From: a virus
DNA length: 64,000 nt
Virus record (IMG/VR): IMGVR_UViG_3300045988_108496
Coordinates: 1 to 64,000 of that record
Reading direction: 5' to 3' (one strand)
The translations under genes and the position numbers were made by a program. The notes below the pieces were generated by a model. That model was not told the origin of the DNA. It saw nothing but the letters and a program-made list of their open reading frames with translations, and did no database searches. Shown here one piece after another: positions 14,311 to 58,430 of this stretch (position 1 is its first letter; every line of letters starts with the position of its first letter).

Positions 14311-15348
14311 ATGGCAAGTTATTTAAAATTACTATCCGGTTCGGTGTTTAATGGTAATCCTATCTCTTTTATTGTTAAACCTATTAATTTAAATAAAACG
14401 CCCTCTTTCCATCGTATGATATTCGAGATAAAATGCGGTATAAGCGAAGGAAACTATGAAACCATAAAGATGTCGGAACCTATAATCAGCGAAAAAGTTA
14501 GAAATGTTGTGGTTGATATTTCCTCTGCTCTACGTTCTTTTCGCGATTCGTATATTTACAAGTCCGAACCTGGTGTAATGCCCGTAGTGAAGTTCAACGT
14601 GTCGGCATACGACGAGTATATGCTTGATGGTGAAGTATATAAGACATCACCGGTGTCTTACTTGTCCGGAGACGATGTGAAGCAGACCCTATTCGGAGGC
14701 TTCTCCGATTACGACCGACTCACGGCCACAAACGACACAATGCCCGTTAGCCGCATGACACGCAAGCCCACGACCATACCGCAGTTGGCATGTGTAGGCG
14801 AAACTATCATCTACGTAGATCCCTACTCGCCTGCCATCGACTTCACCACAGCCACATGGGATGCGCCCGAAGCCAAGGCTTTCACGATAACCAACGAAGG
14901 ACGACAAACCATTGGCGACATTAGCGTTTATGCCATGCCGCAGGCAGAAGCTGTCCGTCGCACGGAGTTCCGCTTCATCAATTCGTTCGGTGTATTGGAG
15001 AGCGTCAGTGTACCGAGAGTATATAGCAAGAAGCTCAGTATTACAACCAATAATTACACCTTGACACAGAAAGAATCTCTGCGCTCGATCTCACGCGCAG
15101 CAACTCGCAAGCAGAACAATCAGGAGGAATGGAACTTCCAGACTGACCCTCTCGATGAAGCATGGCTCGCATGGTATCTGCATGAGTTCCTGATGACAGA
15201 ACACGCATGGATAAACATCAACGGCAAGTTTCTGCCTTGCACCATCACAGCCGACGACGAAATCTCTTTTGATGATAAGACAAAAGAAGGTGTACACAGC
15301 GTGTCGTTTACGGCGAAACTCGACTTCCGAGGAAGCACAATCATTTGA
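14311..15348 (+). CDS. hypothetical virion-module protein
   Basis: 345-aa track ORF between large structural genes. Confidence 0.5.
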   Translation: MASYLKLLSGSVFNGNPISFIVKPINLNKTPSFHRMIFEIKCGISEGNYETIKMSEPIISEKVRNVVVDISSALRSFRDSYIYKSEPGVMPVVKFNVSAYDEYMLDGEVYKTSPVSYLSGDDVKQTLFGGFSDYDRLTATNDTMPVSRMTRKPTTIPQLACVGETIIYVDPYSPAIDFTTATWDAPEAKAFTITNEGRQTIGDISVYAMPQAEAVRRTEFRFINSFGVLESVSVPRVYSKKLSITTNNYTLTQKESLRSISRAATRKQNNQEEWNFQTDPLDEAWLAWYLHEFLMTEHAWININGKFLPCTITADDEISFDDKTKEGVHSVSFTAKLDFRGSTII

Positions 15349-15396
15349 GTTTTGAAATTCGAGTTTTGAATTAGGAACCGGTCGGCTTGCAGCCGA
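15347..15396 (-). repeat. hairpin + heptad element (copy b, inverted)
   Basis: GAGTTTTGAAATTCGAGTTTTGAATT, then TCGGCT-TGC-AGCCGA. Confidence 0.7.
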
Positions 15397-15503
15397 TTTA
15401 CGACCTCAAGAGTCACCATGCTCCTGCGGTCGTTTGCGTTTAAGTATGTCCGTATTATACTAACGCTTTTTTCTAAATTCGTAACAGAAAATCAACATAA
15501 TAT

Positions 15504-18500
15504 ATGACACAAGCAACAACCAGAGACTATTGGATTTCGCCCTCGGCATTGCACATCGAACTAAATGCCCTTGGCAATCCTGACTATATTCAGGCATCGT
15601 GCATAAGCGGTGCCCAAATTCTTGTGTACGTTAAGAATATTATCGGCTTCGATGCTGGACACAATTACCGGCGCTGGTCCTTGCAGGCAGTTCCAACGGT
15701 ATTCAACACCCACACCGAGAAATACGTTTATGCCGCCATCCCTCGCGACATGACGCTCACGGCTTCGGCATTGATTGTGTTCCCGTCTGAGCAGGTAGAC
15801 ATCTACGGCAAGAACGAAAAAGAAGAGCAGATAGGCGATGAGAAGTACTACTACATCTTTCTGCAAGGTGTCATCACCTCGTCGGGTGATAATGGCACGG
15901 TGCAGCGCGATTGGAAGGAAGGCTGCAGAATCGTATATGGCTACTTGTCCTCAGACGAAGCAATCAGTGCCATTCCCTACGAAAGCGAGTGGTATAACTA
16001 TGCTTCGGTAGACGGAATCGTAACATTCCTCAAGGACATCACGATGAAGGCGGGCTCTAAATTTCGCCAACTTTTCGCAAAGACTCTCACTATTGTGTCC
16101 GGAGGACATATCGCTTTTGAAGGACAAGGCGAGGTGAATGGAGTAGCCACAACGGGCACGCAGTTTGAGTCTACCGACAAGATTGTAACTCCGAAGTTTC
16201 TTGACGATAATGCGCTGTCAAAAGTAAAACAGGATGTCGCGCAGAAACTTATCCGTTTTTTGGAAGGTATCGCATTCGGCGAACAGAGCGACAATAACCC
16301 TCTCGGCATCTCCTCTGACGGAATCGCCACACTCAAAGAGGTTGTGTCAGCTGCGTTCCGTTCGGGTGCGCTCGGCTCTGGTTTTAAGCTTGGTGATTAC
16401 AACGGAAGTGGTGACAGTTACTTGGAGGTAGACCGCCTGCTTGTGCGCAAGGCGGCGGAGTTCGTAAGGCTCGTAATCCGAGAGTTGCAAAGCGTAGGTG
16501 GTGAGATTGTTCTGTCGCCTGCTGCCATGAAGATTAGCAATGTGGTCTATTTCGAGAAAGGTGTGTATCTTCCCGAATATGAAGCTCTTCCTCTGCGCTA
16601 CAATGTTTACCGCTGCTACTTCTCGCAGAAGAAAGGCGACGAAGAGATTGAGAACCAGTTCGTCGAGGACGACCTTGTGCGCTGTCAGACGTTCAACGTC
16701 AAGGAGGGCGTGAATGAGAACGTGAAGAACAGATACTACTGGCGTAAGGTGTACAAGGTAGGCAAAGATTTCATTGATGTGCTTGCTGATTTCTGCGATA
16801 CTGGCAGCGATATTCCGCAGGCAGGTGACGAGCTTGTACAGATGGGCAATACGACGGACACGGCACGCCAGTCAGTCGTTGTTCTATCGGCATACGGAGC
16901 GGATGCGCCATCGTTAAAGATGTACGAAGGCGTAGATAGCTACTCGTTAGAAAACAAGGAGGTCTTTGTCCTATCGCGTTCCGAGATGTTCGCCATAGCC
17001 GATAAGTTTAGGTTCGTTACGCGCAAGGCTAATGGCGAGATAGAAAGCACGCAGTCGTTTGCGGAGCTTGTGATGTCCGTGGATGGGCTCAGAACAACGG
17101 TCAAAAGAAACAAAGAAGAGCTTGACGACGAGATAAAAAGCACGCAGTCGCAGATAACACAGACCGCAAATGATATAAGAACAGAGGTTAGGAGAGACTA
17201 CTCTACCAAGAAGGATGTAAACGACCAAATAGCAACTGTTAGCTCTTCTATAACACAGACCGCTACACAGATAGCGATGAAGGTGGGCTACACTCTTGCC
17301 GAGCGACGTAACCTGCTCGTCGGCTCGTTGTTCCGCAAGCAAGGCGAGGGTTTCTTTCTTCTGCGCTCTAAGATATATCGCACGTCGGCGCATGAGGGTG
17401 CTAATGTGATATTCGCACCAGAAGCTAAAGCAGGCGGTGTGCAATGGGGTGGAGCGGCGAACTCTCACAACATACACGTCACCAAGGGCAAGACGTACAC
17501 GCTGGCTTTCTGGGTACGCACGAAGTCTGCCAGAGTAGAAATTGTGGGCGAGACGATATGGCATAGCTCGGCAACCGACACGTCGCGACCAAGTGGATAT
17601 ACCGGTCCTAACGGTAGTGCGAATTTAGGCGGCGTAACGATAACGCCAAGCAACGGATGGTATCTCTACCAAAAAACCTTTACCGTGGCAGCGAACGCCC
17701 CTTATGAGTGGATTTCCGTGGCGTGTCTAAAAGCTAACGCATCTACTGCGAGTCAGCAGGTGTACATCGCCCACCCTATCCTCATAGAGGGTACGGCGGA
17801 GGACTTTGTGTGTTGGAGCGCATCGCCTGACGACTACGACTACATCGGGGGCAACTTGCTTGACAACACGCGCACGTTTAATAAGACAGGCAATCTGATG
17901 CGAATGGATGCGTCAGTGGTAACTAACGGGTCGTACAACAACGGATGCTCGGTAATATATGCAAACGCTGCCTCCAAATACATTGAGATGGCGCAGTGGA
18001 GCGTTAGCTCTATCATCAAGAAAAATGAGGACTACATATTATCCTTTATGGCAAAAGGTTCCGGCAGCATCGACGCATACATGTGGAGTGGTTCTAATCT
18101 AAGCATATTCGCCGAGGACAGCGAGCGCGATACAACAACGAGCAACGCCGACGGAGGTCGTCGCTTCTCTCTCACAAGCGAGTGGAAGCGTTATTGGGTA
18201 CACTGGCGTTCTGAGGGCACTGGCATACCTAATTATGTATTAATCCGTTGTTCGCAAGGCGGAAAGGCGTGGGTGACAATGCCGAAGTTGGAGGTGGGTG
18301 CAACGCCTACCGATTGGATAGAGGGCAAGAGTGGTTTTATCGAAGACAGTGGCATTGCAGCCAAACTACTGCGCACAGGCTTAGACGTCGAAAATGGCAA
18401 GATAACGGCAACGGCGGATAAGTTCGAGGTACGCAACAACAGCGGTGAGACAACGGCAAGCGTTAATGAGAAAGGTTTGTTAGAGGTTGGCGCAGGAGTT

Positions 18501-19028
18501 TTTTCGGGACTAATCCGTAAGAAGATGACGGAGATAACGCCTGAGAACTTAAAGGACTATGTCACCGACCAAGCAGCACTGGCTCTCGGAAATATCCAGA
18601 TTGACTTCGAGAAGACCGGCTGCTTTGTGAAGTTTACGGGTAACATAAAGGCGATGACTAAGTCTGATGTTGTTATTGTTCCACCTTTCTACATGCCCAA
18701 CCATACAAACTGGGGCAAACTGAGCACAAAGACGGTTTACGAGGCTATGGCGTATGTCGGACAGACCATTATTGTTGTCAATGATAGTGATACAGAAATG
18801 ACTACAATCGGATATACGAGTATGGATTTCGACCATGCCAGCAAATATTTTGGCAGAGGGCAAGGCGCGATGATGACCTGCGTTGTCAATAAAGGTCAGA
18901 ATAGTTGCACTGTGGTATGGAACGGCAGACAGTTACCGTTTTCAAGCCCTGCACTTGAAAGCGAGTCCGACCCGACAAGTACTGCTGAAGACCCGACAGC
19001 AACAGAAGAAGAACAACCAAAAGAATAA
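15504..19028 (+). CDS. tail fibre / receptor-binding-type protein
   Basis: 1174 aa. Carries a fibre-like coiled segment (STQSQITQTANDIRTEV...SSSITQTATQIAMKV) followed by beta-rich carbohydrate-binding-like modules. Confidence 0.6.
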   Translation: MTQATTRDYWISPSALHIELNALGNPDYIQASCISGAQILVYVKNIIGFDAGHNYRRWSLQAVPTVFNTHTEKYVYAAIPRDMTLTASALIVFPSEQVDIYGKNEKEEQIGDEKYYYIFLQGVITSSGDNGTVQRDWKEGCRIVYGYLSSDEAISAIPYESEWYNYASVDGIVTFLKDITMKAGSKFRQLFAKTLTIVSGGHIAFEGQGEVNGVATTGTQFESTDKIVTPKFLDDNALSKVKQDVAQKLIRFLEGIAFGEQSDNNPLGISSDGIATLKEVVSAAFRSGALGSGFKLGDYNGSGDSYLEVDRLLVRKAAEFVRLVIRELQSVGGEIVLSPAAMKISNVVYFEKGVYLPEYEALPLRYNVYRCYFSQKKGDEEIENQFVEDDLVRCQTFNVKEGVNENVKNRYYWRKVYKVGKDFIDVLADFCDTGSDIPQAGDELVQMGNTTDTARQSVVVLSAYGADAPSLKMYEGVDSYSLENKEVFVLSRSEMFAIADKFRFVTRKANGEIESTQSFAELVMSVDGLRTTVKRNKEELDDEIKSTQSQITQTANDIRTEVRRDYSTKKDVNDQIATVSSSITQTATQIAMKVGYTLAERRNLLVGSLFRKQGEGFFLLRSKIYRTSAHEGANVIFAPEAKAGGVQWGGAANSHNIHVTKGKTYTLAFWVRTKSARVEIVGETIWHSSATDTSRPSGYTGPNGSANLGGVTITPSNGWYLYQKTFTVAANAPYEWISVACLKANASTASQQVYIAHPILIEGTAEDFVCWSASPDDYDYIGGNLLDNTRTFNKTGNLMRMDASVVTNGSYNNGCSVIYANAASKYIEMAQWSVSSIIKKNEDYILSFMAKGSGSIDAYMWSGSNLSIFAEDSERDTTTSNADGGRRFSLTSEWKRYWVHWRSEGTGIPNYVLIRCSQGGKAWVTMPKLEVGATPTDWIEGKSGFIEDSGIAAKLLRTGLDVENGKITATADKFEVRNNSGETTASVNEKGLLEVGAGVFSGLIRKKMTEITPENLKDYVTDQAALALGNIQIDFEKTGCFVKFTGNIKAMTKSDVVIVPPFYMPNHTNWGKLSTKTVYEAMAYVGQTIIVVNDSDTEMTTIGYTSMDFDHASKYFGRGQGAMMTCVVNKGQNSCTVVWNGRQLPFSSPALESESDPTSTAEDPTATEEEQPKE

Positions 19029-19031
19029 GAT

Positions 19032-19142
19032 ATGAAGAAAATAGTTAGAGGCAATGATTTTACGTTGCGCATACCCGTAAAAAAGATAGTCAATGGTGAA
19101 CAGGTAGCTTTTCCGCGCCTGCCTGCACGGACATCGTTGTGA
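19032..19142 (+). CDS. 36-codon ORF, probable true 5' end of the downstream fibre gene
   Basis: ATG 4 nt after the upstream stop (MKKIVRGNDFTLRIPVKKIVNGEQVAF...). Ends at TGA 19140-19142, overlapping the -1 frame that continues as 19139..21391. Confidence 0.35.
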   Translation: MKKIVRGNDFTLRIPVKKIVNGEQVAFPRLPARTSL

Positions 19143-21391
19143 ATATCGTGAACCAGTATCGGCGCGTGGCTCTGAGCTACACTATCGACACGACGGAGGA
19201 CAATATCATCAATGCGCGTGTAGAGGGCGACGCTGTATCAGTGGGCACATACGCCCTCGAAGTGCGAGGTAAGATTTTCGGCAATGACTGGCGCAGCAAG
19301 GAGTACGAGCAGTTTGCCATCGTAGACAACAACGCTTCGGGCGACACAGCGTTCAACGGCGAGCTTATCGAGGGCGAGGACTCCGTGGAGATGAACACGG
19401 CACTTGTTATCCTGCCTCCGACGGCAGAACTGACGCAGCTTATAACCGACGCAAACACAGCTATTGAAACGGCGAAGCAGACGGACGCAACGCTCAAGGC
19501 TAACGAGAGTGAGCGCACGGAGGCGGAACAGCAGCGAGCGTCAGCAGAAGCCGCTCGCGTGTCAGCAGAAAATAAGCGCAGTGAGAGTGAGGAAGTTCGC
19601 CATGCAGCGGAGACAGAGCGCATGAGCAATGAGGACGCTCGAAAGTCAGCAGAGGCGCAGCGTGCCAATGCTGAGAGCGAGCGTATCGAAGCTGAAAAGA
19701 CACGCACAGCGAACGAATCCGCACGTGTCGCAGCGGAGAAGCAGAGAGCGACTACTTTTGCCGAGCTTACGGCGAACGTAGACACGGCTGTCAGCAAGGC
19801 GAACAGCGCAGCAAGTGCAGCAAACACGGCTACTGACAAGGCAAATGCAGAGGAGGGCAAGCGTGCGGAAGCCGAAAATCTGCGCACGGAAGCAGAAGCT
19901 ACACGCAAGCAGAACGAAAACACGCGGCTGGAGGCTGAAACCGAGCGTGTACGACAAGAAGCAGCGAGAGAAACTGCGGAAGCTACTCGCCAGAACGCAG
20001 AGACGGAGCGAGAAAAAGCTGATGCCGAGCGTGAGAAACGTGTGTCCGAAGCAATATCCGGCACGTCTTCTGCCGCCAAAACCGCCACTGACGCAGCAGC
20101 AGTGGCAACAGAGACAGCCAAGAAAGCTATGGTTGCGACTACAGAAGCAGAGAGGGTAAACGCCGAGCTAAGGGGCAACGTGCTCGTAGTGACCGATAGA
20201 AATGGCGATGTCAGCACTCTTGACTTTGAGCAGTGGGACTTGGAGGAACGAGTGAATATCACCATTACGACATCTGTTGCTGGAGTAAGCGTGAAAGGCG
20301 TGGCGGTAAACGTCTTCCTTAACGACGCTTCGGTGTTCACGAAATACACCACGGATGCTGACGGCAAGGTGTCGTTCACAATTCCGAGAGGAACGATGTA
20401 CAGAATAGCTTTCCAGGAGTTGAAAGGCTGTGACCCACTTCCTTCTCTCACTTACACCGCCGCACTGAGAGTACGCGACATCAACGTGGAGTATAAGCCG
20501 ATAAGCGACGAGCGAGCCTCTGTGGTAGTAACGATAGACAAAGCGGAGAACGGAAGTGTAAGTCCGTTCGGAGGCGTGGCAGTGACCTGCGCCATTGCAA
20601 ACGGCGACACAATAACAACGGAAACCGACAGCGAAGGAAAGGTGACGTTCCGCGTACCATACAACAAGAAGTACAAGATTACCGCAGCCCAAAAAGATGG
20701 CTATTATGCTTTTCGCGGCATATATGAGAAGAGTAATGTGGCAGATGTGGCAGAACATAATCTTTACTTCCACTACTACCCTACAACGTCGGGCGTGTTC
20801 ATTCTTGACGCTACAGGCGCACAATATACGGCAGATGAATGGCAGGCGGCTGGCAAGAACGCGGAAGAGGCAGTCCTCATAAAACTCGTGACGCAGAACC
20901 TCGCTAATGGCAACAACTGCTTCGGCTTCTCACCCGCAGCCTTGCAAGCCGGCTATCCAAACAAGCAGTGGTGTACACAGAATACGCAGTTCAACAACAT
21001 TCCATTAAACGGTAACAATGTAAAAGATGCACTGTACTACGATGGCGTAAAACAGTCAAAACTTGTGCGCGAAGAAGCGGAAGAGCGTGGATTGTCTATA
21101 CCTCTATTCACTTACGCCTATGAGCAGACGGTGGATTTGGCGGATGTTCAGCTACATGGCTTTATTTTGACGATTGGACAGATGACGGAAGCGAATGTGA
21201 ACAAAATTCTTGTGAACGAGGTGGTAAAGATGCTGCATGGCGGTAATGCAAAATTATTCAGTTCTTTATTCTCTCGATTGAAATGGACATCAACGCAGTA
21301 CAGTGTCGTAGATGCTTGGGCTTTTAGTTCCAGTTCGGGCGGTCACGTCAAGTCGGACAGCAGCCTGGCTCTGCCGGTCTTCGCTTGTTAA
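19139..21391 (+). CDS. tail fibre protein with Ala/Glu/Arg coiled coil
   Basis: 750 aa with a GTG start in the track. Long AE..R repeat coiled coil. Two CarboxypepD_reg-like beta modules (DADGKVSFTIPRG, DSEGKVTFRVPYN). The C-terminus resembles the DUF1566/Lcl type. Confidence 0.6.
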   Translation: MNIVNQYRRVALSYTIDTTEDNIINARVEGDAVSVGTYALEVRGKIFGNDWRSKEYEQFAIVDNNASGDTAFNGELIEGEDSVEMNTALVILPPTAELTQLITDANTAIETAKQTDATLKANESERTEAEQQRASAEAARVSAENKRSESEEVRHAAETERMSNEDARKSAEAQRANAESERIEAEKTRTANESARVAAEKQRATTFAELTANVDTAVSKANSAASAANTATDKANAEEGKRAEAENLRTEAEATRKQNENTRLEAETERVRQEAARETAEATRQNAETEREKADAEREKRVSEAISGTSSAAKTATDAAAVATETAKKAMVATTEAERVNAELRGNVLVVTDRNGDVSTLDFEQWDLEERVNITITTSVAGVSVKGVAVNVFLNDASVFTKYTTDADGKVSFTIPRGTMYRIAFQELKGCDPLPSLTYTAALRVRDINVEYKPISDERASVVVTIDKAENGSVSPFGGVAVTCAIANGDTITTETDSEGKVTFRVPYNKKYKITAAQKDGYYAFRGIYEKSNVADVAEHNLYFHYYPTTSGVFILDATGAQYTADEWQAAGKNAEEAVLIKLVTQNLANGNNCFGFSPAALQAGYPNKQWCTQNTQFNNIPLNGNNVKDALYYDGVKQSKLVREEAEERGLSIPLFTYAYEQTVDLADVQLHGFILTIGQMTEANVNKILVNEVVKMLHGGNAKLFSSLFSRLKWTSTQYSVVDAWAFSSSSGGHVKSDSSLALPVFAC

Positions 21392-25346: not shown

Positions 25347-25385
25347 GGGGGGGGGTGGTCTGTGGTGGTCTGTGGTGGTCGTGAA
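25347..25385 (+). repeat. G9 tract followed by a ~3 x 10-bp TGGTCTGTGG mini-array
   Basis: GGGGGGGGG, then TGGTCTGTGG TGGTCTGTGG TGGTCGTGAA, directly upstream of promoter-repeat copy 1. Confidence 0.8.
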
Positions 25386-29537: not shown

Positions 29538-30215
29538 ATGGATAAGAAGAAATATATCGACGTATTGACTGAACAGGCAAACAAGCATCACAGACCGCAA
29601 GAAATGGCTCTGAGCGACTTCTGCGACTATCTTATAGAGTTTTTCAGTGTTGATTCTTTTAAGACTGGCACAACTGGTCAGCATTTCTTAAACTGCACAC
29701 AAAAAAATCCCGCTTTTGCCGATCTTGCTCTTCTGTGGCTCAACGACGTAAAAACGGCGATGGAGCATGGCCAGTGGCTTGACGTGTTTGGCATACTGTA
29801 CGAAGAAATGTATCTAAGCCGTGGCAAGGCATCGAAGACGGGTCAGTTCTTCACGCCTCAGAGCGTGTCGGACTTAATGGCACAGATCAGCGGCCTGGGA
29901 GCCGGCGACCACGGCAGGGTGAACGACTGCGCAGCAGGTAGCGGACGTTTGCTCCTGGCACATTATATGGAGAAGAGCAAACTGGACCATTCAGCCGGCA
30001 GACGCTTTGAGTATGTGGCACAAGATAGCGATCCTATTGCTTGCAATATGTGCGCCTTGAATTTAATGGTACACGGCATGTATGGTCGTGTGGAGTGTCG
30101 CGACACATTGCGTATGAGTAAGCCGACGGTGGTGTATTATATCAACGAAGTAAAATATCCGTTTAACACGCCTTATTATAGCGTGAGAACGGTATTAGCG
30201 GAAAATCAAAAATAA
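29538..30215 (+). CDS. truncated N6-adenine methylase-like (HsdM-like) protein
   Basis: GQFFTPQSVSDLM (motif X-like), NDCAAGSGRLLL (motif I) and CNMCALNLMVHG...CRDTL are present. No canonical NPPF/Y motif (only FNTPYY). The protein ends about 15 aa later. Confidence 0.55.
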   Translation: MDKKKYIDVLTEQANKHHRPQEMALSDFCDYLIEFFSVDSFKTGTTGQHFLNCTQKNPAFADLALLWLNDVKTAMEHGQWLDVFGILYEEMYLSRGKASKTGQFFTPQSVSDLMAQISGLGAGDHGRVNDCAAGSGRLLLAHYMEKSKLDHSAGRRFEYVAQDSDPIACNMCALNLMVHGMYGRVECRDTLRMSKPTVVYYINEVKYPFNTPYYSVRTVLAENQK

Positions 30216-35481: not shown

Positions 35482-37080
35482 ATGGCTAAAATTAAGAATT
35501 TTGAGGATTATTGCGCTTTGGTGGACGAAGTAAAGGTGCATGATTATAAGTATTTTGCACAGAACGCCCCCTCTATAAGCGACGAGGAATATGATGCTCT
35601 TTACTTCGCTTTGCAGGAATATGAAGACGCGCATCCGGATGATATACTGAAAGACTCACCTACCCAGCGGTGCTACAGCGAGAACGGCAACGGCAAGCGC
35701 ACTGTTGCGCGTCGCACGGCGTGCCTCTCGATGAAGAAGCTGCATGATGCCAAGTCGGTAGTGAAATACCTGAGAGCGCAGCAGCGCACTGCCAATATCA
35801 GCAGTCAGGGCGCGAAGGTAGATATAGAGTGGAAGTTCGACGGCGAGACCGTGAGTCTTGTGTATCGCCGCGGCTCGCTCTCGGAAGCTACCTACGGACA
35901 TGGCAAAGAGTTGTACGGCATCGACTGCCTGGAACATATAAAGCATGTTCAAGGCGTGCCTGTCCAGGTGGACGTATGGAGCCAGTACGACCGAGTGGAG
36001 GTGAGAGGTGAGGTGATCATCTCGCTTGAGGAGTTTGCCCGTTATAGCAAGGCTGGCAAATCGCCCCGTTCTACGAGTAACGGCATCATGGCGAAGAAAG
36101 TGGCTGTAAAGGACGAGTGCAAGCGTCTGGAGTTTCATCCCTTCCGCCTCATTATGGACGGCGTGATAAGACACACGGCTGCTATGCAGGCTCTTGAGCG
36201 TAATGGCTTTAAGACTTCGGGCTTCGTGTCGGCTCTCAATCTTGAGAAAACGGATGCCGAACTGGAGCAGGACATTGAGAACATCGTGTGCTCTGCCGAG
36301 GTGGAGCGTGAGTCGCTGCCCTACCCTACCGACGGTCTTGTGTTCAAGTTCGACAACTACGACTATTACGACCGTATAGGACAGACCGATCATGACGCAA
36401 AGTATAATTGCGCTTTTAAGTTTCGACCGGTGTTTAAGGCCGTAACCACATATCGCGGATACCATACTACGGTAGGCGAAAAGACTGGCAAGGTGACGTA
36501 TGTAGCCGACTTTGACGAGGTGGAAATGAACGGACACCGTTTCGCCCATGCCAACTGCGGAAGCGAGCGCACGTTCCTCCAGAAAGACCTTGTGGCAGGT
36601 TGCAAGATAGAGGTCAGCTTGCACGGCGATGTTATCGTGTGTGTGGATAGAAAGATTGAAGACGAACCGGCTATTGATGAGAACCTTATCATTGAGGAAA
36701 AGCCTATCATTGAGGAAGAATCTATTGCTATTGACGAGGAGCCTCTTGTTATAGACGAATCGGGATTTGTTCATCATCCGGAGCCTCACGTTATAGAGCC
36801 GGATATTTATCAGGATCGGGAGCCGGAAGCAGAGTCGGAGCCTATACCTCAGCTGAAGCCGAAACGTAAGCGTAATTATCCGCAGGTAGGCGAGCCGACG
36901 CTACGAGAGGAACGTGAAGACACGTCGGCAAGGAGAAAGGATGGCAAACTGAGCGTAAAGAAGGTATTCGCCGGTGCGCTTGCTGTACTCATGTCAGCGT
37001 CAATGTTCGTAGTTGTGGTAGCATTCGCCGGAGCCGCCCTATTCTTTCTGCCGATGATGGGAGATGTTGCAAAGAAGTGA
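35482..37080 (+). CDS. ligA: NAD-dependent DNA ligase (adenylation + OB core) with acidic linker and C-terminal TM helix
   Basis: HDYKYFAQNAPSISDEEYDALY...HPDDILKDSPTQR matches the LigA domain Ia/N-terminus. KxDG motif EWKFDGETVSLVY. C-terminal VFAGALAVLMSASMFVVVVAFAGAALFFLPMMG. Confidence 0.85.
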   Translation: MAKIKNFEDYCALVDEVKVHDYKYFAQNAPSISDEEYDALYFALQEYEDAHPDDILKDSPTQRCYSENGNGKRTVARRTACLSMKKLHDAKSVVKYLRAQQRTANISSQGAKVDIEWKFDGETVSLVYRRGSLSEATYGHGKELYGIDCLEHIKHVQGVPVQVDVWSQYDRVEVRGEVIISLEEFARYSKAGKSPRSTSNGIMAKKVAVKDECKRLEFHPFRLIMDGVIRHTAAMQALERNGFKTSGFVSALNLEKTDAELEQDIENIVCSAEVERESLPYPTDGLVFKFDNYDYYDRIGQTDHDAKYNCAFKFRPVFKAVTTYRGYHTTVGEKTGKVTYVADFDEVEMNGHRFAHANCGSERTFLQKDLVAGCKIEVSLHGDVIVCVDRKIEDEPAIDENLIIEEKPIIEEESIAIDEEPLVIDESGFVHHPEPHVIEPDIYQDREPEAESEPIPQLKPKRKRNYPQVGEPTLREEREDTSARRKDGKLSVKKVFAGALAVLMSASMFVVVVAFAGAALFFLPMMGDVAKK

Positions 37081-37459: not shown

Positions 37460-38326
37460 ATGGAAAGACTTAGAGAAGTGCTTGCCTTTGTAAACCACAA
37501 AGGCGGTGTAGGAAAAACAACAACGGTGCAGAGTTTAGCGACCGGATTGCGCCGTTTTGGTAAAGGAAAATTCGGAGTGGATGCCGATGGACGCAAACGC
37601 TTGCCGCGTGTGCTCATTATCGACCTTGACCCGCAGGCGTGTGCCTCGTTCCTCTTCGGATGGAGCGAGACTCAGAACGCAGGTAAGCCTACCGTTTACG
37701 ACGCATTGGTACAGCAAAGCAATTTGCCCGTTTATCAGGTACGTGAGGGAATTTACCTCGCGCCAGCTGCGTCGCAGCTTATATCCATAGAACCGTTTCT
37801 GAATCAGCGGGCATTGCCTCGCAAAGCCCTTTGTAAATTGCTCGCCAAGCCACTGAACGAGTTAGCAGGCACCGAACTGGCAGACGGAGGCGTGAACACC
37901 GTTATGGATGCTTTCGACTACGTGCTTATAGACTGCCCACCGGCTATGTCGTTGCTTACATACAATGCTCTCACAGCCGCTACGAGTGTAGTGCTGCCCG
38001 TGCAGCTCGAAGTGTTGGCAACAAAAGGTATTGCCGAAATCATCAACGCCATCGAGGAAACACGTGAGGATCTTAATCCCGATCTTGACATTCGTGGCTT
38101 GCTGATGGTAATGAGCAACGACCAGACCAACGCCACAAAGGAGTTTAAGGCATATCTCGGCGAAAAGTATCAGGACTATATGTTTGACGCTTATACGCGC
38201 CGCGACACGAAGATGGTCGAAGCGCAAGCTATGCGAGAAGACATCTTTGCTTATGCACCGTATTGCAGGGTAGGGCAGGACTATGAGCGTTTTACCAAGG
38301 AGATAATCAACAGTTTCACTTTTTAA
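37460..38326 (+). CDS. parA: ParA/Soj-type partition ATPase
   Basis: Deviant Walker A FVNHKGGVGKTTT. IIDLDPQ motif. Typical size of 288 aa. Confidence 0.9.
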   Translation: MERLREVLAFVNHKGGVGKTTTVQSLATGLRRFGKGKFGVDADGRKRLPRVLIIDLDPQACASFLFGWSETQNAGKPTVYDALVQQSNLPVYQVREGIYLAPAASQLISIEPFLNQRALPRKALCKLLAKPLNELAGTELADGGVNTVMDAFDYVLIDCPPAMSLLTYNALTAATSVVLPVQLEVLATKGIAEIINAIEETREDLNPDLDIRGLLMVMSNDQTNATKEFKAYLGEKYQDYMFDAYTRRDTKMVEAQAMREDIFAYAPYCRVGQDYERFTKEIINSFTF

Positions 38327-43885: not shown

Positions 43886-44551
43886 ATGATAGATGTTACT
43901 TTAGATTTTGAGACCTGTGCACTTGCACCTACAGCTGCCGTGATGAGTGTCGGGGCAGTAGTATGGAATCGCGATGGAGATAAATCACCTTTTTATGGTG
44001 GCAATAGTGCTGTTAAATATCCTACATTCTCGGCTCATGTAGACCTTCGGGGAATGTTCATCGAGGGTTTTACTTTCGATGAAGAGACAGCCGAGTGGTG
44101 GAAGCAGAAGAGCGAAGGAGCAAAAGCTGCAGTTCTTGATAGTGATGATGACGCTACACCATGTTCGCCTATACAGACTGTTGTGCGTAACTTTTTTGGA
44201 TGGGTTAAAGAAATCAAAGAAGCGTTGCACAATCAGGACTTGTGTCTTTGGGCTCAAGGTTCAGATTTTGACATTGCTATCTTGCGTAATATCTGCTATA
44301 AGTTGGGCATAGAAGTTCCCGTGCATTACACCAACTTCCGCGACCATCGCACGTTTATCTACGAGGCGGCTCGCTTGATATGTAATGCCCGTGGAGAGTT
44401 CTATCATCCGAGTAAGGCATACGACCTTATTGAGGATTATAAGGACATTGATAAAGGCGCGGAACACGACCCTGTATTTGACTGCAAGCGCAGCATCTAT
44501 TCCACATGGCAGATGATGCGAAAGTTGGCTTGTTTGAAATATATTGAATAG
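43886..44551 (+). CDS. DEDD-type 3'-5' exonuclease
   Basis: Exo I DVTLDFETC, Exo II WAQGSDFDIAIL, Exo III EHDPVFDCKRS (DEDDh pattern). Confidence 0.7.
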   Translation: MIDVTLDFETCALAPTAAVMSVGAVVWNRDGDKSPFYGGNSAVKYPTFSAHVDLRGMFIEGFTFDEETAEWWKQKSEGAKAAVLDSDDDATPCSPIQTVVRNFFGWVKEIKEALHNQDLCLWAQGSDFDIAILRNICYKLGIEVPVHYTNFRDHRTFIYEAARLICNARGEFYHPSKAYDLIEDYKDIDKGAEHDPVFDCKRSIYSTWQMMRKLACLKYIE

Positions 44552-49346: not shown

Positions 49347-49580
49347 ATGCGAACATTCACCCCCCCCAAGTGCGAAAACTGCATCTCTTACGACCATATA
49401 AAATGCGGTTGCAGAGAAAAAAGCTCACCTCTGTTCGGCGGCAATATCAGTCCGTTTCACCTTGCTTGCTGCAACTTTATAAGCGTGTCAAAGGTATATG
49501 CACCAAAGAACCGCATAAAGAAGTGGTATAAGGTACGCACGATGGACGACATGAGCGACAGCAGAGCGAGACTATATTAA
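49347..49580 (+). CDS. small Cys-rich protein
   Basis: 77 aa. CENC...KCGC...ACC. C8 tract at codons 5-7. Confidence 0.4.
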   Translation: MRTFTPPKCENCISYDHIKCGCREKSSPLFGGNISPFHLACCNFISVSKVYAPKNRIKKWYKVRTMDDMSDSRARLY

Positions 49581-50224: not shown

Positions 50225-50278
50225 TTCAAAATGCGCAACGCGCATAATTCAAAACTCAAATTTCAAAATTCAAAACTT
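50224..50278 (+). repeat. hairpin + heptad element (copy d)
   Basis: AATTCAAAA, then ATGCGC-AAC-GCGCAT, then AATTCAAAACTCAAATTTCAAAATTCAAAACTT, ending at ATG 50279. Confidence 0.7.
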
Positions 50279-51469
50279 ATGAAGTTACAAGCCCTATCAT
50301 CCAAAGCCCTGCACGCTGCCCTTAACAAGTCGGCAAAGTGTATCGGCTCTAAAAATCCCATTGCCATTTTCGACAATGTGCTGCTGACCTGCAACGAAAG
50401 CGGTCTGTTCTTTCTTACGTCATCTACAGCAGAAGCACAGCTCACCATCCCGGCGCCCATTTCGTTGTGCGGTGGCAAGTTTGATAAGCCGATAGTGCTA
50501 CCTATAAAGATGCTCAGTTCGCTGTTAGGCACACTGCCCGACTGCGTTGTCACTCTTGATATAGAGGAGGGTGGATCGTCGTTCACTGTAGAGTATTGCA
50601 CCGGCAGTGGCGACAACGTTAAGTCGGGCAAGGCTAAAATGGCTTATTTCTCGGGCAACGAATACCCTCAGATGCTATTGCCCAAGAGTGAGGCTTCAAC
50701 AATTATTTGCCTGCCTTTTCAGTTGTTCCATTCTGTTATAGATACTGCTGATAAGTTTGTTCAGATAGACGAACTTCGCCCCCAGCTTTCCAGCTTGTGT
50801 GTAGACATTGCCGACGACCGCTCAGAGGTGGTCTTTGCGGCTACGAACGGACATACGCTTGCAAAGATAGTACACAGCAATGATCCGCAGAAGGGTGGCA
50901 GTGATTTCTTCCGTAGTGGCGAGCCTCGCAAGACGCTTATCCACCGCAATTACTTCCGCACGTTGTCAGCCTTTGACGGATGCGAGGAGATCAGCATCGA
51001 GAACGACGGAAACACCATCCGTTTTTCGTCGGGCGACATCGAACTTATTTGCAAGCACATGGAGGGCAAATACCCTAACTACAGCGGCGTAATTCCGAAG
51101 TCCAACCCCTACTTCGTCGTATTTGACAAGAAGGAAATGACTGACATCCTGCGCCGTGTCAGTCTGTTCTCAAGTAGCGCAAGCAATCTTGTAAAGGTAG
51201 AGAAGAACGGCATTTTCATCAACGTTTCTGCGAGTAACATGGATTTTGCTTTGTCCGGCGAAGACCAGGTGCTCATATCTAACGCAGAGTGCCCCGACAA
51301 TTTCCGCATCGGATTGAAGTCGTCGGCTTTTCAGACCTGTATCAACTCCATTCCGTCGGACACCATACGAATGCAGTTGCTTGACGCTTCGCACGCCGTA
51401 GTGCTCACCGCTGACACACCTGCGCCTAAAGTGATGACGCTTGTGATGCCGATGCTGCTTGACGATTAA
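50279..51469 (+). CDS. dnaN: DNA polymerase III beta sliding clamp
   Basis: ATG 50279 (MKLQALSSKALHAALNKSAKCIGSKNPIAIFDNVLL...TSSTAEAQL). DnaN N-terminal pattern and a size of 396 aa. Confidence 0.8.
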   Translation: MKLQALSSKALHAALNKSAKCIGSKNPIAIFDNVLLTCNESGLFFLTSSTAEAQLTIPAPISLCGGKFDKPIVLPIKMLSSLLGTLPDCVVTLDIEEGGSSFTVEYCTGSGDNVKSGKAKMAYFSGNEYPQMLLPKSEASTIICLPFQLFHSVIDTADKFVQIDELRPQLSSLCVDIADDRSEVVFAATNGHTLAKIVHSNDPQKGGSDFFRSGEPRKTLIHRNYFRTLSAFDGCEEISIENDGNTIRFSSGDIELICKHMEGKYPNYSGVIPKSNPYFVVFDKKEMTDILRRVSLFSSSASNLVKVEKNGIFINVSASNMDFALSGEDQVLISNAECPDNFRIGLKSSAFQTCINSIPSDTIRMQLLDASHAVVLTADTPAPKVMTLVMPMLLDD

Positions 51470-54262: not shown

Positions 54263-56254
54263 TCATCTTCCACTCGGCAGCACAAACCAACCGCCACCGC
54301 CACGGAAGAATTTGTAACCTAAATACAGAGTATCGAAGGCATCCGTGAAGTCGGTACGTTGCTGTAAGGGCAGTGTGTCCTCACTTTCTGGCTTCTTTTC
54401 GCCCGACTTATCCTTATGAAATCCTTTGTACGAAATCTGCACTTCGCAGAGCTGCATGGCTATGATAAGATCGGGGTTGTTTATTTGGTTAATACGGATG
54501 GCGGGGTAGGAGAGGTGAGCAAGACCGTCGTTAATGATTTGATGTTTCACCTCGTGCTTTTCCGGCGCACCCATGTCTATTGCTGTCACGTTCCAACCTC
54601 GTTTCTCCAGTTCTGCAATCACTATCATATAGAAGCGTTCGTCGCTTGAAGCGTACGAGGCTCCCTGCTTGGCAGTGGAATCGTAGAAATACGTCACGTC
54701 GCGGTTGACGGCTCGCTTCGGAGCGTAGTAGTCTGAAAAATCGGCAATTAGTTCGCGTAGTTTGCGCTCGTTCTTTACGTAAAAACTCTTTATCACATTC
54801 AGACACTCCATGCCGTCACGCGCGTAGCCTTGTCCCACAACGAGTGTATTGATGTTAGCGTTATAGTCGAGAGCTATATATAGAGGCAGGGAGTTGATGC
54901 AGTCGGAATCCATGCGGCAGTCGTTGCGCTCGGCGAGTTCCTGGAAGTCGGGTTGGTAACTCTCGCTTGTGATGCGTTTGCCGTTGATGATGCCACTTAC
55001 CTTTTGTGTGCTAAAATTCGCCTGATTAAGAACATCATCATCTGGGATATAACCGTGAACATGATCAATGTCGAGGTTGGAATAAAAGCCATCGTTCGAT
55101 TTCTGTATCTTGACGTTAAGAATTGAGACCGCGAAGGTGTATGGCGGAAGGTCACGCTTCATCTGACGAATATAGTCTTCGCCCAAAATATCCACATTGT
55201 CGAGCGATGACGCACGGCGCACGCAGAAAGCCACACGGCGCAGCTCACGCAGATAACCATCAGTGAACTTCTTTGAGCGCAGAAACATCTGCATCTCGAA
55301 ATCTTCTTCTGGCGTGATAAGATACTCATAATCGTAAATTAGTTCGGCATCGTCCTGTGGAATGAGTTTATAGTTGACAGCCATCTCCACCATACCCTTT
55401 GTGACGTGTTGGCCATGGTTGGGCATTATCTTGAACTGCCCCTCATGCTTCATCATCTTCAGAGCCACGGCACGGATCATCGTGCGCAAATCCTTCGGCA
55501 CCACATGAACTGAGTGACTGTTCTTCTTGGCGTTATACAGCAGGTCGTTGTAGCGTATCACCTTATTTGCATAATCCTCCAACTGCTCCTGCACCCATCG
55601 GTAAGTCTTGCCCTTGAACGGACCCGTCTCTACGGTCAGGTCCAGTTTCTCCTCCTCTTTCTCCAGCCACGAACCTTTGGCAGTGAGCGAGGCATCCGAG
55701 AGAAAGCGTGTTGATTTATACATCGGGTTGTGGTCAGAGAAGTTGATGTCGCCCAGCGGATGCGTCTGACCTGAAAGAGCCGGCATCAATTCGTCTGTTA
55801 CTTTCTTATACGGGAAGAATCTCGCCTCGTCGCCCACCATTGCCGAGAACGTGTAGGAGTTGGCAGAGGCAGTCTGCGAGAGAGATATAAGAACCCATCC
55901 GGCACCATTCGCCAGCCAAATATAGTTGTCGTAGTTCTTAGGTTTGAAGATACTCTCGCGAGCATGTTTCGGCGGTCGTCCCCACCCAAAGTGGATGCCC
56001 TGCGTAAAGCCGAACATACGCTCCATAGCCGCCATCGTACTCGGGATGGTCTTACCGAAGCCCTGTTGACGCGACACTGCCACCCATGCGCCGAGCATAC
56101 CAGGCATGGAGTTGCTTGCCGTCCAGACGTAAGGAGCCACCAAACCATCGGTCTTACCCACACGGCGGGCAGCAATCACTCGCTCGTCTTTGGATCCCAT
56201 GTATAGCGACTGCTGCTGGAACTTAGTTAAGTAAATATTATGTGCTTGCTGCAT
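54263..56254 (-). CDS. terL: terminase large subunit
   Basis: 663 aa. Walker A-like AARRVGKTDG near the N-terminus. Overall size and pattern of phage TerL by memory. Confidence 0.7.
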   Translation of the reverse strand: MQQAHNIYLTKFQQQSLYMGSKDERVIAARRVGKTDGLVAPYVWTASNSMPGMLGAWVAVSRQQGFGKTIPSTMAAMERMFGFTQGIHFGWGRPPKHARESIFKPKNYDNYIWLANGAGWVLISLSQTASANSYTFSAMVGDEARFFPYKKVTDELMPALSGQTHPLGDINFSDHNPMYKSTRFLSDASLTAKGSWLEKEEEKLDLTVETGPFKGKTYRWVQEQLEDYANKVIRYNDLLYNAKKNSHSVHVVPKDLRTMIRAVALKMMKHEGQFKIMPNHGQHVTKGMVEMAVNYKLIPQDDAELIYDYEYLITPEEDFEMQMFLRSKKFTDGYLRELRRVAFCVRRASSLDNVDILGEDYIRQMKRDLPPYTFAVSILNVKIQKSNDGFYSNLDIDHVHGYIPDDDVLNQANFSTQKVSGIINGKRITSESYQPDFQELAERNDCRMDSDCINSLPLYIALDYNANINTLVVGQGYARDGMECLNVIKSFYVKNERKLRELIADFSDYYAPKRAVNRDVTYFYDSTAKQGASYASSDERFYMIVIAELEKRGWNVTAIDMGAPEKHEVKHQIINDGLAHLSYPAIRINQINNPDLIIAMQLCEVQISYKGFHKDKSGEKKPESEDTLPLQQRTDFTDAFDTLYLGYKFFRGGGGWFVLPSGR

Positions 56255-56256: not shown

Positions 56257-56484
56257 TTATCCTGATGTTTTATGTCCTACATGCCATTTATTGCACGTCC
56301 TGCACCGGTACACCGTATATCTCTGTGCTTTGAGATTCGGGTTCTCTTGTAAGAACTCCCAAGCATCATCCTCGGTCTCGTATGTTTTCTTCGCCTTCCA
56401 TGAGTGCTGCTTGCGAGTGTAGTGTTCGGGGTCCGGCTTGAACGGCGGAACCTTGTTGAAGTATTTGTGTCGGTTGTTACTCAT
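56257..56484 (-). CDS. small Zn-ribbon-like protein
   Basis: 75 aa. C-terminal YRCRTCNKWHVGH. Confidence 0.45.
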   Translation of the reverse strand: MSNNRHKYFNKVPPFKPDPEHYTRKQHSWKAKKTYETEDDAWEFLQENPNLKAQRYTVYRCRTCNKWHVGHKTSG

Positions 56485-56529: not shown

Positions 56530-57123
56530 TCAGTTAAACCACTTCACAGTTGTCTCGCCCTTATACCCTTTCTCCCACACGAACCATGCGTAAGCCGCTG
56601 CGCTGCTGCCGTACTTGTCGAAGTCGCCATTCATAGCACATTTCAGTCGCGACGAACTTACCCAAACACGAATGGGGGGGGTAGAACGGAAGAGATCGCG
56701 TCGGGCCTTGCCTTCGAGGAAAGTCAGCTTTAGGAACATCGCCACTTTCTTACCTTCGGGAATTATGCTCAGAGCTTTCTCAACGAACTGCTGCGCATAT
56801 TTGTAGGGTGGATTGGTCACGATGTTCCCGTTCCACACCAAGTTGTCTATTGCGAGGAAGTCAGCCACCTCACCGTAACCTCTATCCACAAGGTCGCGGC
56901 TCACCACCTCATACCCTGCCGCCTTCAGCGCCTCGCTTATGTGTCCTTCGCCACACGCAGGTTCCAATATTCTACCGTCGAATTGTTCCAACCGGCAAAG
57001 CCACTCCGTAGCTTTTGGCTCCGTAGCGTAATAGTCCTCACGCTGTCGTTCTCCGTCAGCATGATTACTCGCTCCTAATGTCTTGAACACGGCAGCCGAG
57101 CCGCCCACCCAGTCCTTAGCCAT
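56530..57123 (-). CDS. DNA N6-adenine methyltransferase (NPPY)
   Basis: Motif I ILEPACGEGH and motif IV VTNPPYKY. Carries a C8 tract on the coding strand at 56674-56681. Confidence 0.8.
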   Translation of the reverse strand: MAKDWVGGSAAVFKTLGASNHADGERQREDYYATEPKATEWLCRLEQFDGRILEPACGEGHISEALKAAGYEVVSRDLVDRGYGEVADFLAIDNLVWNGNIVTNPPYKYAQQFVEKALSIIPEGKKVAMFLKLTFLEGKARRDLFRSTPPIRVWVSSSRLKCAMNGDFDKYGSSAAAYAWFVWEKGYKGETTVKWFN

Positions 57124-57165
57124 TGTGAACCTCCTTTCCGCATTTAATTGAATAGTTCATGTCTT

Positions 57166-57495
57166 TTACATTTTAAATTGTCTTTTCAAGAAAGGATTGC
57201 TCTTTATGAGTTCTATCATTTCCTCCTCTGAGTGTAAACCCTCCCAAAATACTTCAGTATGTGAATATCTTCTTTCGTCGTCAATGGAGAACGGCACGGC
57301 ATAGTTGGTATATATAACGCCGTGATGTTTTATCAAGTGGCGACCTGGATTCTTGTAGATATTATCGATCCACGTCTCGTTGTTACATTCAGTCCATATT
57401 TTGTATTCTTCGTGGGTAAGGCCTTTGTCGATACCAATAGGATAGTGACTTGCCCTGCCGTTGCCTTCTGTCCCAAAATAGATAATCTTTGCCAT
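57166..57495 (-). CDS. hypothetical protein
   Basis: 109-aa track ORF. Confidence 0.45.
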   Translation of the reverse strand: MAKIIYFGTEGNGRASHYPIGIDKGLTHEEYKIWTECNNETWIDNIYKNPGRHLIKHHGVIYTNYAVPFSIDDERRYSHTEVFWEGLHSEEEMIELIKSNPFLKRQFKM

Positions 57496-57515
57496 ATCGT
57501 GATTGTTTATGTTGT

Positions 57516-58430
57516 TTATAATGTCAAGTCAATACCAAACTCTCTTTCCAAAAACTCCTTCCAGTCCGGTTTCCCGAACAGCGAAACGTTAGCCTTCTTC
57601 CAGTCCTTTTCGCGAGGGAAAAACACGTCACGCGTAAACCATTCGTACACGTTGTCGTAGCGTTGGCGAACCTTTGCGTCGGGATGATTGTCCCAAAAGC
57701 GTTGTCCGGCACGCAGGTAGGCTCGTGCCATACGCGGATATTCCTTGAAGTAGAGGATGCGCTTGCGCTCTGTGGCGAGTGGGCAACACATACAGCCGAG
57801 ACGTTTCGACACGTCGATTTGCCCCCCCCGATTGGTGTAATAGACTGGAGCGAGTGTCAGATGTCGGTCTTCGACGAAAGCCAACACATCATCGTCCGTC
57901 CAATCGAGAATAGGGTAAATGGCTTCCACATGATTGTCCTCCGTCTTGCGACCGTAAAAACGGCATTCCGTAGGTTCGTTGTATCGCTCATTGCGCTTCG
58001 AGCTCTCCGACTTCCTTATGCCCATGATGCACTTATCTGTAACCTTGTATTCCTTCAACTTCTCGCAACAGAATCGTGAGAAACGGTTAGGGAACCCCTT
58101 TTTCGTTACAAGTTGAAAGAACGTTTCCTTGGGTCTGAGTATTTCGGCACCCATACGCCCCACATGGGCAATCGTACCTGGAGGATCAATCGTAGTGTTG
58201 CGATAAATGGCACGATAGCGGACACCCGCTTCCTTAGCCAGTTGCAGAATCACGTCAGAGTCTTTGCCGCCCGAATACGCCACCTCTATCTCATCGTCGT
58301 ATCCATTCTGTATGCCTTGAAGCAGACGGATGGCACGGTCTATTTTCTTTTGTAAATCCTCTGTTATCATATCGTTGTTTTTGTTACTTATTTTACCCAT
58401 ACCATCAATGGTTTTTATCCAACCCATCAA
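57516..58430 (-). CDS. PAPS-reductase / PP-loop ATPase family protein
   Basis: PP-loop VAYSGGKDSDV. The start is uncertain (alternative ATG at 58370). G8 tract on the coding strand at 57822-57829. Confidence 0.8.
   Translation of the reverse strand: MMGWIKTIDGMGKISNKNNDMITEDLQKKIDRAIRLLQGIQNGYDDEIEVAYSGGKDSDVILQLAKEAGVRYRAIYRNTTIDPPGTIAHVGRMGAEILRPKETFFQLVTKKGFPNRFSRFCCEKLKEYKVTDKCIMGIRKSESSKRNERYNEPTECRFYGRKTEDNHVEAIYPILDWTDDDVLAFVEDRHLTLAPVYYTNRGGQIDVSKRLGCMCCPLATERKRILYFKEYPRMARAYLRAGQRFWDNHPDAKVRQRYDNVYEWFTRDVFFPREKDWKKANVSLFGKPDWKEFLEREFGIDLTL

Follow-up and report, generated by a model that had tools for sequence, protein, structure and literature searches.

G/C homopolymer tracts as candidate contingency loci in DNA-modification genes of a poorly characterised phage group

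Two genes in a 64,000-nucleotide stretch of DNA from a gut phage (IMG/VR record IMGVR_UViG_3300045988_108496, positions 1 to 64,000; hereafter the window) each carry an uninterrupted run of eight G/C bases in their coding sequence. One encodes a PAPS-reductase-like PP-loop protein (hereafter PAPS-like), the other a predicted DNA methyltransferase of 197 amino acids (aa), hereafter MTase197. The locus raises the question whether such tracts are contingency loci, at which gain or loss of a base switches a phage DNA-modification gene on or off, or have another origin. A first-pass annotation of the window had proposed a stochastically switchable DNA-modification module, in which the two genes form a pair that may install more than simple methylation. 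Comparison with related loci supports, with a probability that was put at roughly 0.78, the interpretation that the tracts act as contingency loci and switch the phage DNA-modification genes independently of each other.

Both tracts were found at the positions given in the first-pass annotation, in frame and within intact open reading frames (ORFs). In the PAPS-like gene (57516-58430, minus strand), C8 at 57822-57829 on the plus strand corresponds to G8 on the coding strand, read as CGG GGG GGG and encoding R-G-G in the context ...YYTNRGGQIDVS.... This tract lies in a variable loop, approximately 10 residues upstream of an invariant RLGCxxCP motif. The longest ORF of the gene encodes 304 aa and contains an SGGKDS PP-loop as well as an invariant CC...CxxC cysteine set. 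Since homologues begin at MITEDLQ, its true start is likely the ATG at 58370 (284 aa) and not the TTG at 58430. In MTase197 (56530-57123, minus strand), G8 at 56674-56681 on the plus strand corresponds to C8 on the coding strand, read as ACC CCC CCC and encoding T-P-P in ...FRSTPPIRVW.... Simulated one-base changes of the G8 and C8 tracts, both of which lie inside an ORF, led to truncated products.

When IMG/VR was searched with the PAPS-like protein as query, 80 loci were returned, of which approximately 50 showed 64-100% protein identity and were located on contigs of 50-110 kb. Frame-aware tblastn analysis of 51 alleles (the window and 50 related loci, designated by L numbers) showed a tract of G4 to G9 at the homologous site. 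The gene was in frame (ON) in 24 alleles and frameshifted (OFF) in 27. All but one of these frame breaks (26/27) occurred at residues 197-204, which coincide with the tract; in the remaining allele (L027, ~6278), the frameshift was located at residue ~110, in an A8 run that had been created by substitution. Which tract length kept the gene in frame was set by the flanking sequence: after GATAC, G7 was ON and G8 and G9 were OFF; after CAATC, G8 was ON and G7 was OFF; after ACAAT, G6 and G9 were ON and G7 was OFF. Variants that differed by three bases were also present, as were interrupted variants (GAGGGGG) that represent 'locked ON' forms. In every allele, whether ON or OFF, the true downstream frame was open for 101 codons, which argues that the OFF alleles are not decaying pseudogenes. 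ON and OFF alleles were interleaved at the tips of a neighbour-joining tree, constructed from the PAPS-like gene with the tract removed, and parsimony required at least 16 changes of state. Close relatives were thus polymorphic for tract length, with otherwise intact ON and OFF alleles. In two distant PAPS-like homologues (47-51% identity), a G9 tract was found at other positions, either inside the codons of the SGGKDS PP-loop or near the N-terminus (L047, ~6105; L054, ~6004); these are further independent tract origins in the PAPS-like family.

MTase197 matched phrog_799 (1.4e-68) and, as read from the translation, contains EPACGEG (motif I) before NPPY (motif IV), which is the gamma-type order of amino-methyltransferases. 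With an S-adenosylmethionine-binding motif I, an (N/D)PPY motif and family-level homology, it was classified as a predicted N6-adenine/N4-cytosine methyltransferase; it had no Pfam match and only weak similarity to M.TaqI (E 0.57). C8 corresponded to an ON state in the window and in L006, L007, L028, L031, L034 and L045, and C6, C7 and C9 to OFF states. A synonymous, interrupted allele, CCCCACCC (ACC CCA CCC), represents a locked ON form. An exact-flank pattern scan identified 34 viral contigs, in which C8 was present 15 times, C9 five times, C7 three times, C6 twice and interrupted 8-mers nine times. MTase197 of a second clade has no tract at the C8 site; its tract, G5 to G9 in length, lies at residue ~50 and likewise comes in ON and OFF forms. 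Inactivation by another route was observed in L037, in which the methyltransferase gene contained an in-frame stop (~8120).

When the states of the two genes were compared, all four ON/OFF combinations of the PAPS-like gene and MTase197 were seen, which indicated that the two switches are independent. On the minus strand, the gene order is PAPS-like, orf109, MTase197, orf75 and the terminase large subunit, with gaps of at most 45 nt, and the terminase gene closes this co-directional block. The leftward block ending in the terminase was recovered as previously described, with the nuance that one ORF, orf109, separates the PAPS-like gene from the methyltransferase gene. A linked pair was not borne out, in view of the four state combinations and of a clade with 70% identity in which other ORFs separate the two genes.

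The tract in another methyltransferase gene, on which the proposal of a switchable module had also drawn, proved to be real. This second methyltransferase (258 aa, N6_N4_Mtase family; 7000-7776, plus strand) contains a G8 tract at 7176-7183 that encodes part of M-G-G-V. In L082, whose N6_N4 methyltransferase was 99% identical, a G7 tract caused a frameshift at residue 60, and in L081 the tract was G8 and the gene intact. Both methyltransferase tracts of the window, at 7171-7186 and 56669-56684, read AATGGGGGGGGTAG on the plus strand (ATG-G8-TAG), although the two genes have opposite orientations. The possibility that the tracts belong to a longer common motif was considered and the resemblance set aside as a probable coincidence, the flank not being conserved in L081 and the other tracts being different. 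A further C8 tract (49360-49367, plus strand) occupies codons 5-7 of orf77, a cysteine-rich ORF of 77 aa (49347-49580) without a Pfam family match. In relatives, C8 gave the 77-aa ON product, and C7 or C9, present in the majority of relatives, gave products truncated to 17-61 aa. By this allele pattern, orf77 appears to be the fourth phase-variable gene of the window.

The tracts exceed chance expectation. G/C runs of 5, 6, 7, 8 and 9 bases occurred 14, 0, 0, 4 and 1 times in the window, as opposed to a monotonic decay with length for A/T runs. Based on the observed per-base extension probability of ~0.13-0.2 (run-length extension analysis), ~0.1 G/C runs of at least 8 bases were expected and five were seen. 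A second mode was also present in 765 kb of related loci, in which G/C runs of length 5 to 9 numbered 231, 37, 47, 43 and 14 and A/T runs 1935, 479, 140, 56 and 2. Codon usage gave a similar picture: GGG accounts for 5.9% of Gly codons and CGG for 5% of Arg codons, the codon-usage probability of CGG-GGG-GGG is ~2e-4, and the only two GGG-GGG dipeptide encodings in the 60 modelled genes of the window were both at tracts. Bimodal run-length histograms and use of rare codons thus showed that the tracts are non-random and that the repeats are over-represented.

Long G/C tracts were also non-randomly distributed over genes. From the 61 closest loci, 104 G/C runs of at least 7 bases were extracted and the ORFs that contained them were clustered. 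The PAPS-like gene accounted for 44 of these, MTase197 for 20 and a further 2 scored on the opposite strand, N6_N4 methyltransferases for 20, D12-class (Dam-like) methyltransferases for 15, a C5 methyltransferase for 1 and an unassigned stretch for 2; across these families, the tracts filled at least 12 distinct positions. In all, about 100 of the 104 thus fell in the PAPS-like gene or in one of four methyltransferase families. After exclusion of the PAPS-like gene, on which the loci had been centred, 55 of 60 tracts were located in methyltransferase-homologous sequence, which makes up 8.9% of the DNA (nominal binomial P 5e-52, with related contigs treated as independent). Within this group of phages, possession of a long G/C tract is therefore close to a marker of a DNA-modification gene, a clade-wide pattern that goes beyond the two-gene observation of the first-pass annotation. 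The near-confinement of the other tracts to methyltransferase genes is the best argument that the PAPS-like protein likewise acts on DNA.

Sequence and structure comparisons placed the PAPS-like protein in the PP-loop/PAPS_reduct superfamily. It matched PF01507 (PAPS_reduct; 2.7e-13, 50.8 bits versus a Pfam gathering threshold of 22.5) and contains the SGGxDS signature, here SGGKDS, the ATP-pyrophosphatase site. It also matched phrog_424 (1.1e-32). In an alignment of 37 homologues (30-77% identity), SGGKDS, R-x-CC-xxx-KE and RLGCxxCP were invariant, and C101, C102, C193 and C196 were the only invariant cysteines. In APS reductases, a CC...CxxC set binds a [4Fe-4S] cluster, and cluster binding by the phage protein is predicted from this motif. 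The R-G-G loop encoded by the tract varied, with DE-SG, NG or QG in other members of the family, so the tract is not imposed by the protein. A frameshift at the tract is predicted to remove two of the cluster ligands together with the C-terminal domain.

An AlphaFold (AF2) model of the protein was of high confidence, with a pLDDT of 96.4. Top PDB matches in Foldseek were the [4Fe-4S] APS reductases 2goy and 7lhr, followed by CysD, FAD synthase and TtuA, over a range of TM 0.4-0.65 and 13-19% identity; no DndC, SspD or BrxP entry was among the returned folds. A sequence search of the PDB returned only CysD (E 0.03). Because these matches represent generic PAPS-reductase and PP-loop folds, the fold does not settle function. 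Among defence models, the best PADLOC match was the PAPS-reductase domain of BrxP (8.8e-16), covering only positions 104-364 of the 779 in the model. The protein is not a BrxP of the canonical type (780 aa with PAPS-reductase and SspB-like domains, encoded with brxC, brxZ and brxL), and no BREX genes were found near its gene. Matches to DndC were partial in both PADLOC (7e-6) and TIGR03183 (20.7 bits versus a cut-off of 290.4), the score for CysH (NF002537) was 21.2 bits versus a cut-off of 154, and none of the NCBIfam cut-offs was reached. The profile search of 57516-58430 that the first-pass annotation had called for thus supported PF01507 membership and left DndC and CysH far below their curated cut-offs.

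Gene context provided additional information. Distant homologues (37-50% identity) adjoin C5 or N6/N4 methyltransferase genes or genes for DUF7666 proteins. Intact homologues with 37% identity, annotated as hypothetical and devoid of the tract, occur in BF10P1, BF8P1 and BK649P1 (~48 kb), which are cultured phages of Bacteroides fragilis and B. ovatus (L318, OP172662.1; L319, OP172680.1). Shared regulation and gene neighbourhood led us to infer that the PAPS-like protein belongs to the functional class of DNA modification, and the reading that best fits its sequence is that of a predicted DNA-directed PP-loop/[4Fe-4S] enzyme.

Allele comparisons of this kind could be confounded by homopolymer errors in sequencing or assembly, in which case the genes would be truly intact everywhere. 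Some sequencing platforms do make frequent errors in G/C homopolymers, and one catalogue supplied most contigs. However, the proportion of OFF alleles, at ~50%, is far above consensus error rates, and frameshifts were absent from control genes on the same contigs: the terminase large subunit (54263-56254, minus strand; weak phrog_2 match and tblastn matches to terminases of other phages), orf279 and the conserved, 75-aa orf75 directly upstream of the terminase gene (56257-56484, minus strand) were in a single frame in 51/51, 51/51 and 52/52 cases, respectively. In the five closest loci, 1-bp indels inside the PAPS-to-terminase coding block were found at the two tracts only. OFF and ON alleles were also present in independent JGI metagenomes (L013, L016, L021, L038, L039), and two metagenome contigs carried OFF tracts of G7 and G5. 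In protein clusters derived from ENA, Logan and NCBI, the match to the PAPS-like protein ended at residue ~200, and frameshifted products recurred as clusters from several sources (e.g., P0050, with 42 members). Neither the three-base and synonymous interrupted variants at the same sites nor a genome that avoids G/C runs of 6-7 bases and yet keeps runs of 8-9 is to be expected from error. With the control genes unshifted and the indels mapping to the two tracts, sequencing error was rejected as hardly credible. Variation at the DNA level, together with shifted methyltransferase frames that end within 3-40 codons, makes it just as implausible that the tracts are programmed recoding sites, at which ribosomal frameshifting or transcriptional slippage yields two isoforms with alternative C-termini. 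The observation that invites such a proposal comes from the PAPS-like gene, in which, within the subclade of the window, the two wrong frames run on for 98 and 63 codons beyond the tract, resulting in 301-aa and 267-aa products (a G7 tract in the gene of the window would give the 301-aa product). In clades with 65-75% identity, the corresponding frames reach a stop after only 30 and 46 codons, and an alternative C-terminus is therefore not conserved; dual coding was rejected, and the long alternative frames, confined to one subclade, are unusual and probably not functional.

Mutational hot spots in dispensable accessory genes, with the OFF state as the first step of gene loss, would also generate frameshifts at tracts, and the genes concerned are indeed accessory, reside in part in a mosaic island in which methyltransferases are gained and lost, and are in some alleles broken otherwise (the A8 indel of L027 and the in-frame stop in the methyltransferase of L037). 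This explanation was nevertheless judged improbable. The tracts persist over 65-100% protein identity even though synonymous codons could remove them, and are built from the least used codons for Gly and Arg. They arose at 12 or more sites, nearly all within five gene families. Moreover, ON and OFF states alternate among the terminal branches of the tree, and all 26 tract-OFF PAPS alleles keep the 101 downstream codons open. A different objection concerns the nature of the PAPS-like protein, which could be a metabolic CysH/APS-reductase type of auxiliary gene for sulfur assimilation that lies near methyltransferases by chance. Its distance from the CysH cut-off (21 bits versus 154) argues against this assignment, and so do the BrxP domain, a DNA-modifying one, as best match among defence models, the possession of a tract type otherwise nearly confined to DNA methyltransferases, and the recurrence of C5 or N6/N4 methyltransferases beside distant homologues. 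CysH enzymes have a C-terminal catalytic cysteine motif of the ECGLH type, and no motif of this type was conserved in the homologue alignment. In favour of a metabolic role are the PF01507 domain, the PHROG label of phrog_424 (PAPS reductase, auxiliary metabolic gene) and the closest solved folds, 2goy and 7lhr, which have the same CC...CxxC set; on balance, such a role was considered quite unlikely.

Contingency loci are strongly supported by the length variants at the same sites, the interleaved ON and OFF states, the open downstream frames and the unshifted control genes, and the stochastic switching predicted in the first-pass annotation is upheld to that extent. Several points weigh against this interpretation. 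The evidence is a comparison of consensus assemblies, and it supports high-frequency, reversible switching inside one population indirectly, through the 16 or more changes on the tree; a single IMG/VR collection (3300045988) accounts for most contigs; the enrichment statistics count related contigs as independent; the adaptive rationale is inferred; and translational or transcriptional recoding over a tract could soften the OFF state.

If the tracts are contingency loci, slipped-strand mispairing during phage replication would add or drop one G/C pair, shift the reading frame and truncate the enzyme. The window encodes a DNA polymerase III beta clamp (50231-51469), an NAD-dependent DNA ligase (35482-37080) and an Rv2179c-like exonuclease (43886-44551), which suggests that some of the replication machinery is encoded by the phage itself. 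A shift would cost the PAPS-like protein its invariant CxxC ligands along with 100 residues at the C-terminus, and MTase197 its last 50 residues. A later slip would restore the gene, and each tract would switch separately, such that four coding switches (PAPS-like, two methyltransferases and orf77) would yield progeny with differing combinations of DNA-modifying enzymes. This would amount to bet-hedging on the epigenetic state of the phage: ON progeny would be protected against host restriction that cuts unmodified DNA, and the OFF state would spare progeny either modification-dependent (type IV-like) restriction or a cost of modification.

The nature of the mark that a PAPS-like enzyme might write is a separate matter. 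In gut Bacteroides, BrxP of BREX type 4 makes phosphorothioate DNA, and a P-loop NTPase partner (DndD, SspC or BrxC) is reported to be required for phosphorothioation (Yuan et al., Nat Commun 2026, PMC12914056). The phage protein shares the PP-loop domain with DndC, SspD and BrxP; in contrast to these systems, it is a stand-alone domain of 284 aa without the SspB-like part of BrxP, and no NTPase, DndE or cysteine desulfurase is encoded close to it. When the neighbouring proteins and 20 larger proteins of the window were scanned with Pfam and PADLOC, no DndD, SspC, BrxC, DndE or desulfurase was detected; the only ATPase among the larger proteins was ParA-like, and no partner NTPase for phosphorothioation was thus found within the window, which covers part of the genome; a partner supplied by the host is conceivable. 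The analogy with DndC drawn in the first-pass annotation is therefore weak beyond the shared PP-loop, with a score far below the DndC cut-off, BrxP as the best match and no NTPase partner in the window, and modification beyond methylation is accordingly put forward here as a conjecture. It is unlikely, on this evidence, that the PAPS-like protein writes a non-methyl DNA mark, such as a phosphorothioate or another sulfur- or adenylation-dependent modification, on which the G-tract would toss a coin. Such a phosphorothioate, possibly made with borrowed host proteins as partners, could imitate the 'self' mark of Dnd, Ssp or BREX type 4 systems of gut Bacteroidota and, if so, would represent a phage-encoded, phase-variable countermeasure to phosphorothioate-based immunity.

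Relative to the [4Fe-4S] APS reductases (CysH of P. aeruginosa and M. tuberculosis; 2goy, 7lhr), the protein is similar in fold (Foldseek E ~5e-8, TM 0.5-0.65) and in its CC...CxxC motif. It differs by its low identity (17%), the lack of a conserved C-terminal catalytic cysteine motif, a different C-terminal helical domain of 90 residues and a gene context of DNA methyltransferases instead of sulfur assimilation.

Switching by simple sequence repeats is well known from bacterial phasevarions, in which type III Mod and type IIG methyltransferases are controlled in this manner. As in the phage genes, a repeat within a methyltransferase ORF leads to stochastic ON/OFF methylation (cf. PMC4889913, PMC6902483). 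Phasevarion methyltransferases are cellular, usually parts of restriction-modification systems, and act in global gene regulation or defence, whereas those described here are orphan phage enzymes of four families that presumably serve counter-defence. In Campylobacter phages, polyG tracts reportedly reside in genes for receptor-binding and structural proteins and influence which hosts are recognised. Phenotypic diversity in Campylobacter phages has been attributed to hypermutable polyG tracts (Sorensen et al., Cell Rep 2021, as cited in PMC12823448). The resemblance lies in polyG tracts in phage genes; unlike those of Campylobacter phages, the present tracts sit in DNA-modification genes.

The closest experimental precedent is the alpha-glucosyltransferase gene agt of coliphage T2, an A-tract contingency locus with a trade-off between sensitivity to TgvAB and to McrBC; in experiments, reversion at its tract was ~1000 times faster than that of a point mutant (Gomez, Barrick & Waters, bioRxiv 2025, PMC12633550). 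Both cases involve a homopolymer inside a phage DNA-modification gene, one-base changes that switch modification off and on, and a proposed trade-off between defences that need modification to be absent and those that need it to be present. The tract of agt is A/T and its effect was demonstrated experimentally, in contrast to the G/C tracts of 8-9 bases described here, which are known from comparison and affect several genes per genome, methyltransferases as well as the PAPS-like protein. Literature searches turned up no account, for gut phages, of phage-encoded methyltransferases or PAPS-like genes that are phase-variable.

If each DNA-modification gene has its own switch throughout the clade, the result would be a combinatorial phage 'epigenetic phasotype'. 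Gut phages that randomise their DNA marks could, as a single lineage, keep infecting strains with opposite restriction demands, which would help explain phage persistence in strain-diverse Prevotella and Bacteroides communities. Frameshifted 'pseudogenes' in virome catalogues may, in addition, be OFF states of working genes, and poly-G/C tracts could flag uncharacterised genes for DNA modification or counter-defence from sequence alone, as for PAPS-like and orf77. A clean pattern of this kind, general across the clade, lends itself to experiment; related cultured Bacteroides phages carry PAPS-like homologues.

The window contains three methyltransferase genes, and relatives carry differing sets. 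The third (29538-30215, plus strand) encodes an N6_Mtase domain and has no tract. In L001 and L004, a 765-bp insertion between MTase197 and orf75 (at window position 56516) carries an extra N6_N4 methyltransferase gene, 59% identical to the gene at 7000-7776. Upstream of the terminase gene there is a mosaic island of methyltransferase genes, the content of which varies among close relatives. In gut phages, a link has been reported between methyltransferase load and both broad host range and high prevalence (PMC12636319), and the varying sets observed here fit that host-range link. Between the two tract-bearing genes of the block, orf109 (109 aa; 57166-57495, minus strand) had no match in Pfam, PHROGs, NCBIfam or PADLOC; it is kept in relatives, at varying positions, and an apparent frameshift in five loci was traced to a divergent indel region and not to a homopolymer.

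The remaining long tract of the window, G9 at 25347-25355, is intergenic. The genes on either side are divergent; the one on the minus strand is a 157-aa ORF that contains a helix-turn-helix-like sequence, and the one on the plus strand is an ORF of 117 aa. The tract is followed by approximately three copies of GTGGTCT (region to 25380). The two closest relatives had G8 and a different repeat count at this site, and many related contigs stop within ~1 kb of it. Possible explanations for the region are a genome end, a repeat at which assemblies break and a variable promoter.

Megablast of 6 kb of the window against GenBank phages gave no match, terminase matches were at most ~30% identical, and most large proteins of the structural region (585, 344, 350, 944 and 345 aa; 5220-21391) had no PHROG match, which indicated that the virion module comes from a poorly described lineage. 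The phage belongs to a poorly characterised group with genomes of ~90-100 kb. No tRNAs or Rfam matches were available as host clues in the window; homologous contigs had been binned with MAGs (metagenome-assembled genomes) of Prevotella, Prevotellaceae and Porphyromonadaceae, which weakly suggests a Bacteroidales host. A gene for a ParA-like ATPase (AAA_31; 37460-38326), together with the helix-turn-helix-like ORF at ~24.5-25.0 kb, is a hint that the phage could be temperate or plasmid-like in lifestyle.

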